This document shows positions 15,631 through 58,921 of a stretch of 64,000 nucleotides of DNA, piece after piece (the stretch's first letter is position 1; every line of letters begins with the position of its first letter). The translations under genes and the position numbers were made by a program. The DNA lies in assembly GCA_965261595.1 (NCBI GenBank), contig CBDHDG010000007.1:1248001-1312000 (forward strand), in the 5' to 3' direction. Below the pieces are notes generated by a model. It was not told where the DNA came from and ran no database searches. It saw only the letters and a program-made list of their open reading frames with translations. The stretch is from a bacterium. GTDB taxonomy: Bacteria > UBA8248 > JACPRG01 > G963555815.

Positions 15631-15722
15631 GGAGAGGTGACCGAGCGGTTGAAGGTGCACGACTGGAAATCGTGTAGGCGGGTAAAACTGCCTCGAGGGT
15701 TCGAATCCCTCCCTCTCCGCCA
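15631..15722 (+). tRNA. tRNA-Ser(GGA)
   Basis: GGAGAGG acceptor stem, CACGA-CT-GGA-AA-TCGTG anticodon arm, long variable arm, GTTCGAATC, encoded CCA. Confidence 0.97.
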
Positions 15723-18915: not shown

Positions 18916-19512
18916 TTGGATCCATTCCCCGCTATCCGGTCTTTGGTGAACGAGCTTCGGAAGCTTCCCGGCATTGGGCCGAAGAGCGCGCAGCGGATGG
19001 CCTTCCATCTCCTCAAGCGCGACCGCGCGGAGGTCGAGGCCCTGGCGTCGGCCCTCCGGGAGATGAAAGAGAAGGTCCGGTTCTGCACCCGGTGCCACGG
19101 GATCGCCGAGGGGGAGCTTTGCGCGTATTGCGCGGACCCCGAAAGGGATGCGTCCCTGATCTGCGTCGTCGAGGAGCCGGCGGACGTATTCGCCGTCGAG
19201 AAGACCGGTGAGTTTCACGGCCGGTATCACGTCCTGATGGGTGCGCTTTCTCCCCTGGACGGCATCGGCCCCGAGGAGTTGACCATCGCCTCCCTGGAGC
19301 GGCGGGTCGAGGCCGAGGGGATCAAAGAGACCATCATCGCGACCAACCCCAACATGGAGGGCGACGCGACGGCCATGTACCTGTCGAAGCGTCTTGCGCC
19401 CAAGGGCGTCCGGGTTTCCCGAATCGCGCGCGGAATTCCTGTGGGCGCTTCTCTGGAATTCGCCGACGAGGTGACGCTCTCGCGCTCGCTGGAGGGGAGA
19501 CGGGAGATTTGA
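18916..19512 (+). CDS. recR: recombination mediator RecR
   Basis: LPGIGPKSAQR HhH, C4 zinc finger, TOPRIM (VVEEPAD, ATNPNMEGDATA); TTG start. Confidence 0.97.
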   Translation: MDPFPAIRSLVNELRKLPGIGPKSAQRMAFHLLKRDRAEVEALASALREMKEKVRFCTRCHGIAEGELCAYCADPERDASLICVVEEPADVFAVEKTGEFHGRYHVLMGALSPLDGIGPEELTIASLERRVEAEGIKETIIATNPNMEGDATAMYLSKRLAPKGVRVSRIARGIPVGASLEFADEVTLSRSLEGRREI

Positions 19513-51339: not shown

Positions 51340-52290
51340 AGGGAACAGTCACGTCAAGAAGCTTCTGGGTGAGGTGATGTACCGTTTTGTGTGTAGAAAG
51401 TGTTTTCGGGCAAAAAGAGAGGGTGTACTCTTCCTGGGAGCAAGAAACCCATTTTGGAGGAGCACACCCAATGCAACCGAAGTTGCTTTTTGGGGATAAG
51501 GATTTGGGCCGGGCATTTCAAGAGCTGAATGAGACGTGGGAGGTGGAGTTGCCCATCGAGGCGAGCCTGAAAGGGTTTTTGGAGGGCCTGATGGCCGAGG
51601 AGCGGGCCGTCTACCTGGCGGCCGGGTTCCGGGAGCGCACGCCCAAGCGGCGCGACTGGGCCAACGGCCACTACGTCCGGGACCTGGGGACCGAGGGGGG
51701 GCTGATCCGCGCCCTGCGTGTGCCCCGGGTTCGCGGCGGCGGCTTTCAGAGCCGGGCGTTCGCGCTACCGGCGCCGCCGGGCGGTGGTGGACCGCACGCT
51801 TCGCGATTGCTTCCTGGCCGGGGTGTCCACCCGCCGGGTGGGGGCGTGCGTGAAGGGGTTGTTGGGTGAAGCGGTGAGCGCCTCCACCGTCTCGCGGGTG
51901 TGCACGGCGCTCAGCCGAGACGTTGCGGCGTTCCACGACCGCCCTTTGAGCGACCACTACCGTTGTGTGTTCCTGGATGGCCTGGCTTTCAAGGTGCGCG
52001 GGGCGTCGAGAAGCCGGCGCAAGGTCCTTTTGTGCGCGATGGGCGTCACACTCGCGGGCCGGCGGGAGATCATCGACTTCCGTCTGGCCGACTCGGAGAG
52101 CGAGGCCACGTGGACGAAGTTCCTCGACGACCTCTACCACCGGGGGCTTTTGGGTCACTCCCTTCGCCTCATCATCACCGACGGCAACCCGGGGCTGTTG
52201 GCGGCGCTGGAGGTGGTCTACCCCTTCACGCCCCATCAGCGGTGCTGGTTTCACAAGATGTAAAACGTGGTTAAAATATCTCACCTCGCC
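51340..52290 (+). mobile_element. IS256-family transposase pseudogene (frameshift, stop, truncated)
   Basis: NGHYVRDL..LRVPR, GVSTRR, VFLDG, ESEATW, ITDGNPGL, QRCWFHK. Confidence 0.85.
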
Positions 52291-52484
52291 AATGGTGCGA
52301 CCGAGAACGCTGTGCTGAGATAAAGTGCTGTAAACATTGAATTTATTTTTCATTATCCCGTCTCTTGCTCCTTGCATTCCCGCCACGCTTGTGCTCAAAT
52401 ACGCACCGATTTGATGCAGCGTGTGTTCTATTTGATTACGGAATTGCATACCGAATCACCATAGAACAAAGGCAAGGAGCGACC

Positions 52485-53669
52485 ATGCCCAGAAGGAGCG
52501 AGCTCAGGATCACCAAACGCACCGTGGATGCACTCACCGTCGATGCCAAGGATGGCGTCTTCTGGGACCGGGACCTGGCGGGCTTCGGGGTGCGGGTCCA
52601 TGCCACGGGCCGCAAGGTCTACGTAGTGCAGTCCCGGGGGCCGGCCGGACCGAAGCGAGTGACCCTCGGACGGCATGGGGACATGTCGACCGAGGAGGCG
52701 AGGAAGCGGGCGGCCGTGGTCATCGACCGCATCAAGCGGGGGGAGGACCCCGTGCCCGCGCCGCCCGAGCCGGAGCTCACGTTGGCCGAACTGTCCGAAC
52801 GGTTCCTGCGCACCCATGTCAAGGTGCATTGCAAGCCGAGCACCGTTGCAACGTACCGGTGCGTGCTCGACAAGCACATTCTTCCCACCCTGGGCGCGAT
52901 GTCAATCAACGAGGTAGGACGAAGGGAGATTTCCGCGCTGCATCACCGGCTTCGTGACACGCCTGCAATGGCCAACCGGACGGTCAAGGTTCTGTCGAGA
53001 ATGTTCTCGTTGGCGGAAGCCTGGGAAAGACTGCCGCCCGGCCGGAACCCGTGCCGGTCGGTGCGCCGCTACAAGGAGAGGTCGTGCGAGCGGTTTCTGA
53101 CGCCGGAGGAGTTCCGGCGGCTGGGCCGTGTGTTGAGGGACGCGGAAACGGACGGCTCGGTGTGGCCGCCGGCGATTGCGGCGCTCCGGCTGCTGCTGCT
53201 GACCGGATGCCGGAAGAGCGAGATCCTGACGTTGCGCTGGGACGACGTGGACCGCACGGCGGGCGAGTTGAGGCTCAGGGACGCCAAGTCGGGTCCGCGC
53301 ATGGCGCCCCTAACCGGGCACGTGCTGAGAGTGCTTAACGGCATTCCCCGTATCGAAGGCACTCCCTGGGTGCTTGTCGGACAAAGGCCGGGGACCGGTC
53401 TGACGAACCTCGACCACTACTGGCAACTCATCCGGGCGCAGGCCGGCTTGGATGACGTCCGGATTCACGACATCCGGCACAGCTATGCATCGAGGGCCCT
53501 GGCGCTGGGCGAGAGCCTGCCCACGATCGGCAAGCTGCTCGGTCACAGTCAAGTATCAACGACAGCACGTTATGCGCACTTGATGCGGGATGCGGAGAAG
53601 GAAGCCGCGACCCGGGTGGGCGACAGCATCGGCGCCCACATCGGGCCGCGGAGCACCGAGGCGGCATGA
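52485..53669 (+). CDS. tyrosine integrase with arm-binding domain (paralog 1)
   Basis: FWD..LAGFGVRV..GRHG; catalytic R(TGCR), K, HDIR, H, Y(TARY); RBS AAGGAG. Confidence 0.93.
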   Translation: MPRRSELRITKRTVDALTVDAKDGVFWDRDLAGFGVRVHATGRKVYVVQSRGPAGPKRVTLGRHGDMSTEEARKRAAVVIDRIKRGEDPVPAPPEPELTLAELSERFLRTHVKVHCKPSTVATYRCVLDKHILPTLGAMSINEVGRREISALHHRLRDTPAMANRTVKVLSRMFSLAEAWERLPPGRNPCRSVRRYKERSCERFLTPEEFRRLGRVLRDAETDGSVWPPAIAALRLLLLTGCRKSEILTLRWDDVDRTAGELRLRDAKSGPRMAPLTGHVLRVLNGIPRIEGTPWVLVGQRPGTGLTNLDHYWQLIRAQAGLDDVRIHDIRHSYASRALALGESLPTIGKLLGHSQVSTTARYAHLMRDAEKEAATRVGDSIGAHIGPRSTEAA

Positions 53670-53680
53670 GGCTGGATGAC

Positions 53681-54883
53681 ATGGCGAAGCTGGAATACAA
53701 GACGCTCTCGAACCGCACGGTCGAGAAACTGAAGGTAGAAAAAGACACGGTGTTCTGGGATCACGAGCTCACCGGCTTCGGGATGCGGGTCTATCCCGCG
53801 GGCGGCAAGGTCTATGTCGCCCAGGCCCGGGGACCGGGGGGACCGAAGCGGGTCACGGTGGGCCGGCACGGGGTGCTCGGCGCGGAGCAGGCACGTCAGC
53901 GGGCGGCCCTGATCATCGCCCGGGTCAAGGCCGGCGAGGAGCCGGTGCCCGAGCCCATGGCGGTGAAGCTGTCCGGTGGGCCGACAGTGGGCCAGCTTGC
54001 GAGGCGGTTTCTCGAAGAGCACGTGGCGGTGCGCTACAAGCCGAGCACCATGAAGTCGACCCGCACGGTGGTGAATCGTCATATCGTGCCCGCCCTCGGT
54101 CAGCTACCGCTGGAGGCGGTCAGCCGCGCACGGGTCATGGAGCTGCATGACGAACTCTACGAGACCCCTGCGATGGCGAACATGGTGGTCCGCACCCTGT
54201 CGCTGATGTACAGGCTGGCCGAGAGCTGGGGGCTCGTTCCGGAGGGATGCAACCCCTGCCGGCTGGCGGTCAGGTTTCCCGAGCGCAAGCGGGAAAGGTT
54301 TCTGACCGATGGAGAGTTCACCCGCCTGGGAAAGGTACTGGATGAGGTTGAGACCCGGGGCGGCGCGTCGGCATCCGCGGTGATCGCTCTCCGTCTGCTT
54401 ATGCTGACCGGATGCCGGAAGAACGAGATCCTGACCCTTCGGTGGGAGGACGTGACGCTGGATCAGAACGAATTGAGACTGCCCGACGCCAAGACGGGCG
54501 CACGGGTGGTTCCATTGTCGCCCTCGGCGGTGAGGCTTCTTTCCGGTCTGCCGCGAGAACCGGGCAACCCGTGTGTCATTCCCGGGCGGAAGCCGGGCAC
54601 GCATATGAGCAACGTGGATCAGGCCTGGCAGGTCATCCGGGCGAGGGCTGGCCTGGAGGACGTCCGGATCCATGACCTGCGTCACAGCTTTGCGTCCAGG
54701 GCCCTGGCGCTGGGGGAGAGCTTGCCGATGATCGGAAAGCTGTTAGGCCACAGCCAGGTCGAGACCACGGCGCGCTATGCCCATCTGGCGCGGGATTCGG
54801 TGCAGGAGGCCGCAGCCCGTATCGCCGACAGTATCGCGACCGACATTCTGGGCGAAGGCTGGAGGCCGGCTTCCGGTTCATGA
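53681..54883 (+). CDS. tyrosine integrase with arm-binding domain (paralog 2)
   Basis: Same architecture with all catalytic residues present; alternative start 53666 overlaps the paralog 1 stop. Confidence 0.93.
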   Translation: MAKLEYKTLSNRTVEKLKVEKDTVFWDHELTGFGMRVYPAGGKVYVAQARGPGGPKRVTVGRHGVLGAEQARQRAALIIARVKAGEEPVPEPMAVKLSGGPTVGQLARRFLEEHVAVRYKPSTMKSTRTVVNRHIVPALGQLPLEAVSRARVMELHDELYETPAMANMVVRTLSLMYRLAESWGLVPEGCNPCRLAVRFPERKRERFLTDGEFTRLGKVLDEVETRGGASASAVIALRLLMLTGCRKNEILTLRWEDVTLDQNELRLPDAKTGARVVPLSPSAVRLLSGLPREPGNPCVIPGRKPGTHMSNVDQAWQVIRARAGLEDVRIHDLRHSFASRALALGESLPMIGKLLGHSQVETTARYAHLARDSVQEAAARIADSIATDILGEGWRPASGS

Positions 54884-55067
54884 TCTTTGCCACACTTATG
54901 CAGTTCTAGAGAATTTCCACGCTCTCAAATATCGTTTATCTATTTGTTTTTCCATGTTGTTTCCGTGTTCGCTGCAACTCGCCTGATTATGTCCTACTGG
55001 GCTGGGTGATCGTTTCGCAACCGGATTTGATCAATATGCAGGCATGACATGTCTGCGCTTGTCGGTT

Positions 55068-55731
55068 ATCGCTCCCGGGACCCTGATTCCGACATCCCCG
55101 CACCGCGGCCCGTCGCACGGCTCCATTCACGCAAAACGATCCGCTCGAGCTCCTCCACGCTCCGAACTCCTCAGACCGTCCTCACGACGGCCCTCGTCCC
55201 GATCGGCTTGGCGTACCCAGTTGCGAATCGCCGAAGCGGAGCACTCAAATTCGCGAGCCAGCTCCCCGGGCGTGCGCCCCGCGCGGACCCGCTCGACCAT
55301 CTGGCGCCGTTACGCCGGCGCGTAAGGGGAATGAGTCTTTGTCATCTGAACACGTCCTGCGCACAGTACGAAAGTGTCCACCGAAATGGGTCAAGTCCAA
55401 TCGCTCCCGGGATCCTGATTCCGACATCCCCGCACCGCGGCCCGTCGTACGGCTCCATTCACGCAAAACGATCCGCCCGAGCTCCTCCACGCTCCGAACT
55501 CCTTAGACCGTCCTCACGACGGCCTTCGTCCCGATCCGCGTGACGCACCCAGTTGCGAATCGCCGAAGCGGAACACTCGAACTCCCGGGCCAGCTCCCCG
55601 GGCGTACGGCCCGAGCGAACCAGCTCAACCATCTGGCGCCGGTATTCCGGCGCGTAGGGTGAATGAGTTTTCGGCATCTGAACACCTCCTCCGTACAGTC
55701 TGAAGGTGTCCACAAAAACGGGTCAATTCCA
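55068..55731 (-). repeat. tandem 2 x 332-bp IS3 left-end/orfA fragments
   Basis: Units 55068-55399 and 55400-55731; each has IR TGGA(A/C)TTGACCC..TGGACAC and PYAP..RRQMVE orfA start. Confidence 0.85.
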
Positions 55732-55779
55732 TTCACTAGATTTCATATCTGACTCTCAACGACATCGAGCATCGCAGGA

Positions 55780-56161: not shown

Positions 56162-58921
56162 CTAATTCTTCTTCTGTTTTCGCTTTTTGGTTTGCCTTCG
56201 ACGCTTCCGGAGATGTTTTGGATCCTGTAGATTCCGCAGCCTCGCCTCTAACTGTTCTTGCACCCGTTTCTCTCGTGTTCTCCATGCTTTCTCTTTCTCC
56301 GACTCCAGCTTCTTTACCTGCTCTTCCGCTTCACCGGCACGGCGCATGGCCAAAGCTTCCCGTCGCTCCGACTGCCTCGCCCGATGCCACCCCATCTGCG
56401 CAGAAAAGAACGGTTTATCAAGATCCGGAGTTTGTTCAAAGATCTCATCTACATTCCTGGCAAAAGTATCCTCTAGATCCGCAACATAGTTATTCCGCTC
56501 CATTTGGAACGACGTCTTGGCCGCGTTAATACTAGGACCAAAGAAATGTTCATAACGTTTTTTGTCAATAAAGGAGATTCCAGCATAAAAGTATTCATGA
56601 AGCATACACTGTTGCAACAAGTCAGCGCTAATCTGCTTAGGCGACAAAGCAGACAGATATCTGTATATCGCCTCAGGAGACCAAGTCGTGACGGTCTGTT
56701 CCTGCGACACTCGCTCAATGATACGGCTTTGTGAAATAAAGTAAAATTGCTCGGCATTCTCAAGACCATCCACGGAATACTTTCTGGACCTTAAGTTACG
56801 TAAGAGGACCAATATCTCAGCTTCAGACTCGACTTGAAGTGGGGAGCGATATGTTCCACTTTTCTCCCGTGCCTTCTGAACCTCCGTTTTATAATATTCA
56901 ATATCTCCCAAATCAGCCTGATCAAAGCCAGTAAGTTCTGAAATCCTGACTACCTGCACACCTTTTTTGGTAATGTTATCTTCGAAAGCAACCCGATCGA
57001 TATCTCCCGAAGGAAAGAGCAACTTAACATAGTCACTAAATGTACCAATGTCCCCGTCTGCACTAAGCCTTATATATCCGTCCAAAAATAGATTCTGCTT
57101 GTAGCTTCCTCTCACCGTAGCGGCGCGCAAGAAGTCGAGAGAATCGGTGGGATATCTCTCTACGAAACGTAAAGCCCATTTAAAGTGGTCCCAAGCCTCT
57201 CGAAGTAAGTTCGATGTTGTACAGAGTAACGCCTCTTCATGAGCAAAGGAGCTAAAGAGGTCAACAGCATAGTCGTGATTGTGGCACGCCGTAGCGACAA
57301 GAGGAAGTATTATGCTAGAGTCACAGAGCCACAGTGTCTTCCGAAATATATCTCTTCTCACCTCTCCGCACTTTGGGTCTAGTCCAAGTAGATGATAAAG
57401 GAAGTAGCCCTGAGAAACGGATGCAAGATAATTCCTTTGCGGTGGATTTGGTTCAACAATAAACTGATATACCGCTTCAACAAATGCGGATTGAAGCCTC
57501 AGGTCCTCGATTTTGACGGCTTTGTCCGAGACGTATCCAAACACGTCCGATAGCTCGTCTGGACGTGCCGTTTGCCCCGAATAAATGTTGTTGGCGATCA
57601 CCAACCCACGTTTGGAGAAGTTCTCTACTAAAACCTCTTCCGCGAATCTCTGACACTCAGCGATCTGCGATTCGTCTACCTCCTTATAAAAACCTTTTAG
57701 TGTAAGCTGGAACTGGCCGTAGGCTTGATCCTTCTCCGACTCTCTGATCGCATGATATTCCTGAACCTTCTCACGTCCGGCCTCGGTAATATGGATTTGA
57801 TCCGCAGTGGCCTTCAGCAAACCCTGGGCCCGGAGACTTTTTATTGTCTCTTCGATCGCCTCACCATATTGCGTCGGTGGTTCCGTGATATTTTCCAATA
57901 CAAAAGAGGACGATATCGCGTCTAAAGCCAACCGGCCCGAATCAACCGCGTTCAACTGCGACAATATTAACGGTGAGAGGTAGTCTCCAGGCTGGACACC
58001 TTGTAGTCGTCTATAAAGAGAAAGTGCAATAGCAGCCTCGACTTCCTTGTCCGATGTTACCTTTCTTGCGCGACTCTCTACTCGACGATCTCTGGACACA
58101 ATAAAGTGGTCCATCGTCCTTAACATTTGAATTAGTTTTGAGTGACGTCCATCAGAGTTAGAATATTGGACGAGTACAATGTTGTACTGCTCTAATAGTT
58201 CCTTCTCATCTGCTTCTGTGAAATCTGCAGCGATCAGATAAATTGGGTGGCAAGGATCGCCAGAACGTTTTGCCATATTCAATATTGTATCAATGTCAGG
58301 ATCAGACAAACTGTGGCCTACTATGAGTACATCGAACATGGCGAATATACTGCAAAGTCGATCGCGAAAATACCCTGCCGAACCGTCCGTCTGAAGTCGT
58401 TTGTAATCGGCTGAGGTAAGGATAACCTCTTCTGGATGGTCCAAGTCGGAATGAAGCTTCTGGATTATGTGGCTGACTCCATCTCGCCATAAGATGAAAT
58501 CCTGAGGACGATTCCTAATAACCTCGAAATGTTCATTTAAATTGGAGAGATATTCATTGATCTCGTTATCGTAATTAGTGGTAAGATAACATGCGAAAGG
58601 CCACTTGCTGAGTAGATCGTAAAGATAGCCGTGTGTCTTATTCGGAGGAATTAGCAGCGGTTTGAGGAAAGTTATAAGGGCGTTACGGTCGTCTCCAAGA
58701 TCACGCTCCACTTGACGAAAGAACTGGGGATACTCTTTTTTGTGGAGGTATTTCTCGTATGACTGGAAGTCGGAGACGATATCTAGCGCTGTAAGATTCT
58801 CATATGCTAGTTTGGCCAAATTGCCCCATGATGGATAACCTACCTCGCACGATGGGCCAGATCCAACAAGGACTAGGCATCTTCCGTTATTGATTTTCCG
58901 TATGAGCTGCTTATCAAACAT
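56162..58921 (-). CDS. 919-aa SIR2-domain protein with wHTH-like and PIN-like regions
   Basis: LVGSGPS..GYPSW, TTNYD, KLHS, VGHSLSDPD; LRAQGLL..ITEAG; LWLCDSSIILPL; charged coiled-coil tail; low GC. Confidence 0.85.
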   Translation of the reverse strand: MFDKQLIRKINNGRCLVLVGSGPSCEVGYPSWGNLAKLAYENLTALDIVSDFQSYEKYLHKKEYPQFFRQVERDLGDDRNALITFLKPLLIPPNKTHGYLYDLLSKWPFACYLTTNYDNEINEYLSNLNEHFEVIRNRPQDFILWRDGVSHIIQKLHSDLDHPEEVILTSADYKRLQTDGSAGYFRDRLCSIFAMFDVLIVGHSLSDPDIDTILNMAKRSGDPCHPIYLIAADFTEADEKELLEQYNIVLVQYSNSDGRHSKLIQMLRTMDHFIVSRDRRVESRARKVTSDKEVEAAIALSLYRRLQGVQPGDYLSPLILSQLNAVDSGRLALDAISSSFVLENITEPPTQYGEAIEETIKSLRAQGLLKATADQIHITEAGREKVQEYHAIRESEKDQAYGQFQLTLKGFYKEVDESQIAECQRFAEEVLVENFSKRGLVIANNIYSGQTARPDELSDVFGYVSDKAVKIEDLRLQSAFVEAVYQFIVEPNPPQRNYLASVSQGYFLYHLLGLDPKCGEVRRDIFRKTLWLCDSSIILPLVATACHNHDYAVDLFSSFAHEEALLCTTSNLLREAWDHFKWALRFVERYPTDSLDFLRAATVRGSYKQNLFLDGYIRLSADGDIGTFSDYVKLLFPSGDIDRVAFEDNITKKGVQVVRISELTGFDQADLGDIEYYKTEVQKAREKSGTYRSPLQVESEAEILVLLRNLRSRKYSVDGLENAEQFYFISQSRIIERVSQEQTVTTWSPEAIYRYLSALSPKQISADLLQQCMLHEYFYAGISFIDKKRYEHFFGPSINAAKTSFQMERNNYVADLEDTFARNVDEIFEQTPDLDKPFFSAQMGWHRARQSERREALAMRRAGEAEEQVKKLESEKEKAWRTREKRVQEQLEARLRNLQDPKHLRKRRRQTKKRKQKKN

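Follow-up and report, generated by a model that had tools for sequence, protein, structure and literature searches.

Why does a mobile locus carry two full-length tyrosine integrases of the same build, one directly behind the other, when arm-binding site-specific integrases are regarded as acting singly, assisted by small helper proteins? We analyzed a 64,000-nt stretch of a bacterial contig (CBDHDG010000007.1, positions 1,248,001 to 1,312,000), here called the window; coordinates refer to it unless a contig or locus is named. The two genes, int1 and int2, are probably the recombination module of a family of integrative, and probably mobilizable, islands, with products that would act as a heteromer. 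The pair and the sequence behind it comprise the following features:

52485 to 53669, plus strand: int1, the position-1 integrase, 394 aa, intact, falling in the position-1 clade.
53666 to 54883, plus strand: int2, the position-2 integrase, 405 aa, intact, falling in the position-2 clade.
54857 to 54895, plus strand: int2 tail region, hairpin-like, with a short integrase box II-like stretch, AGGRLPVHDLCH, in another frame.
54896 to 55055, plus strand: sequence downstream of int2, conserved with a relative and resembling, by motifs spotted by eye, the left terminus of the int1-targeting element.

The int1 open reading frame as listed extends from 52365 to 53669 (plus strand); the likely start is the ATG at 52485, with AGGAG just upstream, which gives 394 aa. 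The int1 stop and the ATG of int2 (open reading frame 53666 to 54883, plus strand) share 4 nt, and an alternative int2 start lies 5 codons further in (MAKLEYK), at the point where relatives begin. Int1 and Int2 are collinear and 57% identical across 382 aa (BLASTP E value, 3e-155; 5 gapped positions). Both have the P4-type layout of Pfam Arm-DNA-bind_3, Phage_int_SAM_3, and Phage_integrase domains, identifying them as tyrosine recombinases of the phage integrase family (PF00589; E values of 8e-19 for Int1 and 5e-22 for Int2) and, based on Arm-DNA-bind_3 (PF13356; 4.5e-12 and 6e-9) and Phage_int_SAM_3, as arm-type (“complex,” P4-like) integrases. The catalytic residues of Int1 are R243, K268, H328, R331, H332, H354, and Y363, and the same alignment columns are filled in Int2. 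Between the two proteins, identity is 0.85 from box II to the tyrosine and falls to 0.56 in the arm domain, 0.54 across the N-terminal portion of the catalytic domain, and 0.47 in the core-binding domain. An earlier note on this DNA had described two head-to-tail, collinear integrases, with stop and start overlapping or adjacent, that are near-identical around the catalytic boxes, diverged in the arm- and core-binding regions, and complete for R-K-H-R-H-Y, and all of this was confirmed.

Adjacent integrases with no functional coupling could also arise from the chance landing of two islands at a shared site or from a recent duplication in place. Islands commonly accrete in tandem, and this genome does contain fragments of integrases as well as, at C2:38200-39342, a third integrase behind int2. 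We nevertheless regard this explanation as highly improbable, based on a survey of public genomes in which 80 related loci were recovered with an Int1 profile. An Int2-type gene lies directly 3' of the Int1-type gene on the same strand in 77 of them, with order, strand, and spacing preserved (Int2-type HSPs begin 0 to 107 nt past the Int1 end) and no attachment site separating the two; the remaining 3 loci have an int1 truncated at aa 257-280. Extra integrase-like genes past int2 occur only in locus L111 and at the C2 locus. Among 23 loci fetched from relatives G006, G020, and G021, gene 1 was always nearest Int1 and gene 2 nearest Int2. In a tree of 64 integrase rows, from which 5 fragments had been dropped, position 1 (27 rows) forms one side of a branch (UFBoot 88/SH-aLRT 95) and position 2 (27 rows) forms a clade (99/96), and the two are joined as sister clades (99/98). 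The concern that homologs might be mostly singletons was thus not borne out, and positions 1 and 2 separate into clades, as the earlier note had suggested checking.

The sub-clades of position 1 and position 2 mirror each other, the sole exception being L043 (position 2), which indicates that partners can be swapped between sub-families. The full catalytic set is kept in 27/27 position-1 rows and 28/30 position-2-clade rows, the two misses being truncated genes. Purifying selection acts on both genes: in 15 of 16 pairs, dN/dS is 0.19 to 0.37 for int1 and 0.14 to 0.30 for int2, and the remaining pair is near-identical. Within each clade, conservation of the C-terminal tails and core-binding domains is 0.62 to 0.69, versus 0.35 to 0.46 between clades. 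We conclude that int1 and int2 are inherited, diverge, and are selected as one unit. Pairs are present in multiple copies in 8 of 30 relatives searched, with up to 11 in one genome (G020), and the pair-bearing MAGs are labelled Nitrospinota, Alphaproteobacteria, and Gammaproteobacteria.

Within this genome, the island occupies a single, constant site in the transposase gene of an IS256-family element. Three features lie upstream of int1:

51373 to 52253, plus strand: 5' two-thirds of an IS256-family insertion sequence (IS), target DNA outside the integrase element, with its left inverted repeat from 51373.
52254 to 52268, no strand: attL core, CAAGATG-T-AAAACGT; the attR/attB form is CAAGATG-C-AAAACGT.
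52269 to 52484, plus strand: left arm and leader, found in 8 copies at 97.7 to 100% identity and always between the IS fragment and int1.

The interrupted IS retains transposase fragments at 51471 to about 51760 and at 51718-52263, with a frameshift between them, matching positions 26-91 and 95-256 of the 379 in the Pfam Transposase_mut profile. The 8 IS copies have one sharp common left boundary and a different flank each time, and the 3' part with the right inverted repeat is located elsewhere, with matching 8- to 9-bp target duplications. The Transposase_mut match, terminal inverted repeats, and duplication length place the target in the IS256 family. Every one of the 8 target IS copies in the genome is occupied by an island. 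No IS256 fragment was found beside the pairs in G006, G020, and G021, so the IS is the target and not part of the element. A composite transposon was also rejected: no right inverted repeat of the IS occurs near any copy within 7 mismatches, and these repeats sit on the separate 3' halves. We likewise discarded a minus-strand open reading frame at 51349-52449 (366 aa) as a third gene, as it is Arg/Pro/Ala-rich, has no family match, and lies opposite the transposase fragments.

Local alignment gave 15 bp in common between attL and attR. The single variable base is C in 9/9 attR sequences, and among 8 attL sequences it is G in six, T in one (the window), and C in one; most simply, crossover would fall within CAAGATG (52254-52260). 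The core has no obvious dyad symmetry. The search for an empty site, proposed earlier as a way to define att, succeeded: a contig from another sample (run X16) matches the window as far as 52268 and then runs on into the IS 3' half, giving an uninterrupted IS. When paired by their target duplications, attL and attR partners are on different contigs or inverted, so no simple intact element of the window's sub-family was recovered from the genome, and the window copy, whose matching attR is elsewhere in the assembly, could not excise as a simple unit as assembled. Such placement suggests either large-scale rearrangement between copies of the element or misassembly at these repeats. The interval C6:1007766-1060489 was rejected as one island; it is a mosaic of IS and unrelated genes with unlike target duplications at its two ends, and therefore a recombinant.

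All 8 copies of the int unit in this genome have distinct flanks. The pair begins about 120 to 230 bp in from the island's left end and reads inward. The left arm contains the motif TTTGATTACGGA at 52431-52442, the same 12-mer recurs in the right arm, and a third occurrence of TTACGGA is also in the right arm; the putative arm-site motif is thus based on three occurrences. A promoter-like match spans the junction (-35 TTCACA at 52250; -10 TAAAAT ending at 52277), by consensus only. The right end of the window's island copy was not located, and the TrwC gene closest to this copy is 59 kb downstream (C7:1362009).

Islands with defined ends, of 13 to 25 kb, were recovered in G020. The ends of its sub-family A lie at about 5790 and at 19026, 20684, 19889, and 30637, bounded by a short imperfect direct repeat, GGAATTnCYG. 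Cargo of the G020 islands includes an IHF-like gene, TetR, a 966-aa TrwC relaxase, SSB, and a NikA-like gene, with the TrwC gene 3 to 5 kb from the pair in 4/4 sub-family A copies. Besides TrwC, SSB, and the NikA-like gene, the 59 open reading frames of the 13-kb sub-family A island gave zero matches to transfer genes. Based on the defined ends, TrwC relaxase, IHF-like gene, and SSB, the G020 islands are integrative mobilizable elements, sub-family A having an integrase module and relaxase inside defined ends and no mating-pore set. The earlier note had taken the pair to define a distinct mobile element class. The mobile element is supported by the multicopy pairs here and in relatives and by the defined ends in G020; a class of its own is too strong, as these are integrative, probably mobilizable, islands whose unusual feature is a two-integrase module.

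The note had also seen no excisionase, which holds for the window copy: AlpA or HTH_17 (excisionase-type) matches are absent from the window, the nearest lying outside it at C7:1235380 and C7:1382315. There is likewise no excisionase-type gene beside the pair in G020 sub-family A. It does not hold more widely, since an HTH_17 open reading frame follows int2 in 3/11 G020 copies; some members may therefore have a separate directionality factor. In another sub-family, an IHF-like gene follows int2. Co-divergence, intact catalysis, and selection on both genes would fit either a heteromer or separate integrating and excising enzymes. In the latter case, integration (attP x attB) would fall to one integrase and excision (attL x attR) to the other, which would stand in for an excisionase, or each would serve a different attachment site (a dual target or resolution of tandem copies). 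Such a division of labor without a heteromer would accord with the missing excisionase gene in the window copy and sub-family A, with the retention by both proteins of their own arm-binding domains (55% identical between Int1 and Int2 and 77 to 78% conserved inside each clade), and with the different targets of the sub-families, which are the IS256 transposase gene here and a hairpin repeat or GGAATT core in G020. We consider it rather unlikely, as only one pair of junction types was observed per sub-family, the HTH_17 gene accompanies some pairs, and a shared substrate explains co-divergence equally well.

The int1 gene is itself a landing site, marked by one further feature:

53236 to 53242, no strand: GCTGGGA, crossover site of a second integrative element, at the R-W-D codons of the LRWDD motif within int1.

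The site is empty in the window's int1, and its 7 bp recur at 5 left and 2 right junctions in other parts of the genome. One insertion of this second island, a defence-gene island with a single integrase, spans 48.3 kb (C6:1245809-1294117). The other element splits int1 at GCTGGGA in 4 of the 8 IS-linked copies and leaves int2 in place, so loss of int1 is tolerated, at least by resident islands; G006 also has int1 genes cut at aa 257-258. These splits would suit an int2 that serves as a back-up, keeping the island mobile once a second island has destroyed int1. Such redundancy is improbable: the clades are old (57% identity), each has conserved residues and a tail of its own that a spare copy would not need, and genomes and loci without any observed int1 split also retain the pair. 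Targeting is thus layered, with the IS as landing site of the island and the island's integrase gene as landing site of the defence-gene island.

One close parallel is XerC/XerD, in which two active paralogous tyrosine recombinases form a heterotetramer on an asymmetric site. Int1 and Int2 are similarly paralogous and catalytically intact, and by this analogy a heterotetramer is our working model for them. The Xer proteins differ in having no arm-binding domain and in being encoded by chromosomal housekeeping genes that are usually unlinked; Int1 and Int2 scored 60.5 to 61.7 bits, against NCBIfam equivalog cutoffs of 330 to 335 bits, and are thus neither XerC nor XerD. P4-type integrase islands and integrative mobilizable elements share the domain architecture, the ∼200-bp leader between att core and integrase, ∼200-bp arms, a relaxase without mating apparatus, and IHF involvement. 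Known P4-type islands have a single integrase of this kind, insert mostly at tRNA genes, and use an AlpA-type excisionase, whereas int1-int2 is an obligate pair directed to short repeats or an IS transposase gene, with no AlpA nearby.

Tn554 (TnpA, TnpB, TnpC) and related actinobacterial pairs also encode two adjacent tyrosine recombinases, both described as required, and insert site specifically (PMC3414803, PMC10214605). By description, these recombinases are dissimilar and of the “simple” type and are joined by a third protein, TnpC, whereas int1 and int2 encode collinear arm-domain paralogs; the sequence after int2 varies among closely related copies, so there is no conserved third gene. 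RIT, GInts, and strand-biased circularizing elements (SEs) are described as needing a multigene operon of tyrosine recombinase-like proteins at one end for movement (PMC10214605, PMC8138268). These have three or four genes (ritA, ritB, and ritC in RIT; four in GInts and SEs), including a noncatalytic member and a small accessory protein. The int1-int2 module has just two genes, in 77/80 loci, both with a full catalytic set and both with Arm-DNA-bind_3. The bipartite module (BIM) of Cupriavidus is likewise a two-gene module and pairs a tyrosine recombinase with a conserved protein of unknown function (PMC3414803); as the second gene is not a recombinase, BIM is not a twin-integrase module. In a literature search outside subscription journals, we found no description of paired arm-type integrases (PMC8138268, PMC3414803, PMC10214605, PMC3318190, PMC5704250).

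These observations suggest a two-enzyme mode of DNA cutting and pasting not described for arm-type integrases. As we picture the preferred heteromer, Int1 and Int2 would assemble in the manner of XerC/XerD, each bound to its own half of an asymmetric core and each catalyzing one pair of strand exchanges, and their arm-binding domains would occupy the repeated TTTGATTACGGA-like sites in two attP arms of roughly 200 bp. Integration and excision would both require both integrases, and some members may bring their own IHF-like or HTH_17 protein. Weighing against this picture are the L043 partner mismatch, the persistence of int2 beside split int1 genes, the dispersed attL and attR partners in this genome, and an arm-site motif with three occurrences. 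More tentatively, and leaning slightly against so broad a claim, we propose that an obligate arm-type pair forms a heterotetrameric recombinase, combining XerC/XerD-like assembly with lambda/P4-like arm binding, that drives multicopy mobilizable islands spread between phyla; each sub-family would have been retargeted to a different short site, including a transposase coding sequence, and the islands would be parasitized by others through the LRWDD coding motif. If true, a conserved, co-evolving arm-type pair would be a new way of building a recombination complex. Dividing half-site recognition between two proteins could explain how the islands change target sites, and pairs with orthogonal half-site specificity would be of interest to genome engineers.

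Predictions of an Int1-Int2 complex, run without controls, returned scores of 0.29 and 0.22, where the mark was 0.32, and weigh neither for nor against binding. A megablast search of a plasmid collection with window positions 52300-55000 gave zero matches. RNA-library contigs of run X15 span int1 and int2; such contigs alone do not demonstrate transcription. The single tRNA gene in the window is tRNA-Ser at 15631. Finally, the int2 tail region (54857 to 54895) is kept in several sub-families and extends into an integrase C-terminal fragment in C2, L046, L090, L092, and L106, and window positions 54742-55399 are 97.6% identical to L032:8436-9093 in G006, where the int genes are only 87.6% identical.

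The two tandem integrase genes int1 and int2 form a real two-integrase module, the defining feature of a family of probably mobilizable islands that is both widespread and multicopy. Both open reading frames lie where the earlier note had placed them:

52365..53669, plus strand, int1 (ORF call)
53666..54883, plus strand, int2 (ORF call; 405 aa)

The most probable int1 start is the ATG at 52485, just preceded by AGGAG, giving a protein of 394 aa. The int2 ATG overlaps the int1 stop by four bases, and an alternative int2 start five codons in agrees with the start in relatives. Int1 and Int2 are collinear and 57% identical over 382 residues, and the three Pfam domains found in both (Arm-DNA-bind_3, Phage_int_SAM_3, and Phage_integrase) mark them as P4-type integrases. 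The catalytic set described earlier is intact in both proteins (R, K, HxxRH, H, and Y), and the reported near-identity around the catalytic boxes was borne out, with identity peaking between box II and the tyrosine (0.85) and lower in the arm domain (0.56), core-binding domain (0.47), and C-terminal tail (0.38). Neither protein reached the curated NCBIfam equivalog cut-offs, and the closest solved structures were Xer-type recombinases (E 1e-10 or weaker).

A profile built from seven position-1 proteins (products of the first gene of a pair) was searched against one genome per species, yielding 137 relatives, from which the best 80 loci were retained. At 77 of these best 80, the Int1-type gene was followed, 0 to 107 nt later and without a change of strand, by an Int2-type gene; at the remaining three, int1 was cut at residue 257 to 280. 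MAG labels at related loci among the 137 relatives included Nitrospinota, Alphaproteobacteria, Gammaproteobacteria, Thiotrichales, Defluviicoccus, and others. The pair was present in 8 of 30 relatives of the window's genome, usually in multiple copies, and the relative G020 carries 11 pairs.

In a maximum-likelihood tree of 64 proteins (five truncated rows excluded), a single branch (UFBoot 88, SH-aLRT 95) set all 27 position-1 proteins apart, and their sister group (99/96) comprised the 25 position-2 proteins together with a lone gene and a third-position gene; jointly, these groups formed one clade (99/98). Positions 1 and 2 thus occupy separate clades, the pattern that the earlier note had proposed to look for. 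Sub-clades were mirrored across the two halves of the tree, with the exception of locus L043, whose second gene was placed in another sub-family. For 15 of 16 pairs, dN/dS (Nei-Gojobori) ranged from 0.19 to 0.37 for int1 and from 0.14 to 0.30 for int2, the sixteenth pair being too alike for a meaningful ratio. The full catalytic set was retained in 27/27 position-1 rows and 28/30 rows of the position-2 clade, both misses being truncated genes. Given this pair conservation, the sister clades, the dN/dS values, and the catalytic completeness, the homologs are not mostly singletons, as a chance insertion or duplication would have left them, and a chance tandem is much less likely. The two genes are a conserved unit, co-diverge, and are both under selection.

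A second, distant set of tandem arm-type integrase pairs (37 to 41% identity) likewise had first and second genes in separate clades. Locus L111, labelled Defluviicoccus sp., carries four consecutive integrase-like genes; after a main-type pair come two that are more distant (39% and 35% identity). The distant tandem pairs, in the window's own genome (G000, contigs C1 to C7) and a relative (G006), are as follows:

G000 C6:1788873-1791102
G000 C5:166796-169041
G000 C1:209921-211421
G006 C1:1885226-1887476

Within G000, the repeated unit extends from 51373 to about 54871-54895. Its first part (51373-52253) lies outside the integrase element and comes from an IS256-family element, of which it spans the 5′ two-thirds. 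The left inverted repeat lies at 51373, and the transposase is present as frameshifted fragments that match Transposase_mut positions 26-256 of 379. Such 5′ parts occur eight times; their left flanks all differ, and in every case a shared 222-bp leader and then int1 come next. Elsewhere in the genome are nine 3′ parts, which comprise profile positions 259-377 and the right inverted repeat, each preceded by a shared 212-bp “right arm.” Target duplications of 8 to 9 bp match seven of the eight 5′ parts to a 3′ part, and therefore the IS copies were formerly whole and every one was split at one point, between codons HKM and QNV in each copy. At all eight IS sites, and at a ninth in a contig from run X16 of another sample, GTCAA stands 15 to 16 nt outside the left inverted repeat, which suggests that the IS256-family element has a marked preference in its choice of target:

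51353-51372, plus the corresponding flanks of the seven other IS copies, IS left-flank GTCAA region

The sequence CAAGATG-N-AAAACGT is common to attL (52254-52268) and attR, the left and right junctions of the integrated element. Its variable base is C in 9/9 attR copies, and in the eight attL copies it is G in six, T in one (the window), and C in one, a pattern most simply explained if crossover occurs within CAAGATG. A 678-nt record from run X16 agrees with window positions 51770 to 52268 and then proceeds as the IS 3′ half; it is an uninterrupted IS, i.e., the empty site, and provides independent support from another sample. A record from run X15 agrees with the element rightward of 52262, and its sequence left of that point differs from the window. 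The target of the pair-bearing islands is site-specific. The 12-mer TTTGATTACGGA is common to both arms, and a third TTACGGA lies in the right arm near the core; these repeats are candidate arm-type sites. A promoter-like match (by consensus) spans attL at 52250-52277, with the -35 hexamer in IS-derived DNA and the -10 hexamer in the element; if real, integrase expression would hinge on the integration state.

Across sub-families, the AAAAY motif is kept in the leader-side half-site and the other half varies (read by eye). We infer that Int1 and Int2 would both join in one reaction, as a mixed tetramer with each protein on one half of the asymmetric core. In favor of this most likely arrangement, int1 and int2 are tightly coupled, their trees are mirrored, their core-binding domains and C-terminal tails are clade-specific, and the core is without evident dyad symmetry. 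Its main rival is a split of labor, in which one protein would integrate and the other excise, or each would serve a site of its own. The module is more than a curiosity, and the heteromer idea is directly testable.

In G020, the pair resides on islands with defined ends, with int1-int2 on the inner side of attL. Four sub-family A copies (92 to 96% alike) share sequence that begins ∼215 bp before int1 and stops sharply at a right end 13 to 25 kb away, with an imperfect direct repeat, GGAATTnCYG, at the junctions. Past int1-int2, one 13-kb island of this kind encodes an IHF-alpha-like protein (105 bits, below the cut-off of 111), a TetR regulator, a 966-aa TrwC relaxase-helicase, SSB, DUF4326, a YAcAr protein, and a NikA-like protein whose gene extends into the right end; no mating-pore genes were matched among 59 scanned ORFs. 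A TrwC gene lies 3 to 5 kb from the pair in all four sub-family A copies and ∼10 kb off in two sub-family B copies. The five sub-family B copies (93 to 95% alike) have only ∼2.55 kb in common (leader, int1, and int2), with the left junction at a hairpin-type repeat. The sub-family A islands are integrative mobilizable elements. An HTH_17 ORF occurs 140 to 230 bp past int2 in 3/11 G020 copies.

Mobile elements with multiple tyrosine recombinases are known, including Tn554 (TnpA, TnpB, and TnpC), RIT recombinase trios, GInts (GinA-D), and SEs (IntA, Tfp, IntB, and Srap), and BIM modules combine one recombinase with an unrelated protein (PMC10214605, PMC3414803, PMC8138268). As described in these papers, none is a collinear arm-type paralog pair, unlike int1-int2. 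We found no published description of paired arm-type integrases in a search that left most subscription journals outside and hence is no proof. Integrative mobilizable islands with tyrosine integrases are an already known kind; the two-integrase module is what would set the present family apart.

In the assembly, both genes of the window copy are intact and no attR lies in cis; its attL is matched by attR at C6:1060133 or C7:524561. The attL/attR halves in G000, paired by target duplications, are on different contigs or mutually inverted, reflecting either recombination between element copies or assembly errors at repeats, for example:

C3:53999 with C6:1747184
C7:399911 with inverted C7:460634

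Among the eight IS-linked copies, four have an int1 that stops at 53242, as does one copy that is more diverged, and two int1 right halves start at 53236. The 7 bp common to these junctions, GCTGGGA (53236-53242), lie within codons of the conserved LRWDD motif and are the attachment site of a second integrative element. Its loci in G000 are as follows:

C6:1245809-1294117 (48.3 kb)
C2:36318
C5:51505
C4:627360
C7:403188

The 48.3-kb insertion carries at its right end one arm-type integrase (415 aa, 30 to 32% identical to Int1 and Int2), along with an HTH_37 protein, SSB, a Toprim/DUF7146 protein, a YAcAr protein, and defense-type genes (AAA_15/AAA_21, Mrr_cat, a 1211-aa HEPN_Swt1-SNF2 protein, and AAA_13). 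The ends of the second element read atttatRgat... and ...attgatRaat. G006 has the same pattern: some int1 genes are truncated at aa 257-258, and an integrase gene with 31% identity adjoins an int1 3′ half. Such interrupted copies are what a role of the pair as redundancy against an int1-targeting island would draw on, a reading much less likely than the mixed tetramer.

The int2 end overlaps, in another reading frame, a box II-like integrase stretch, AGGRLPVHDLCH, which in several genomes runs on directly past the int2 stop as a C-terminal integrase fragment (aa ∼335-405). It may be a tandem-element relic, another element's landing site, or a terminator hairpin:

54857-54895, C2:37949-38158, and loci L046, L090, L092, and L106, box II-like stretch or integrase fragment

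Two further features lie downstream of the pair:

56162-58921, minus strand, 919-aa SIR2_2-domain protein in a low-GC (45 to 48%) stretch
55056-55402 and 55400-55737, 250- to 350-nt repeat unit in two tandem copies

The SIR2_2 protein, with transposase fragments (rve_3 and DDE_Tnp_1_4) and an HNH_5 protein on its flanks, resembles defense-type cargo. The repeat unit occurs ∼25 times in the genome, and its minus strand, read by eye, resembles an IS3-family element at the 5′ end.
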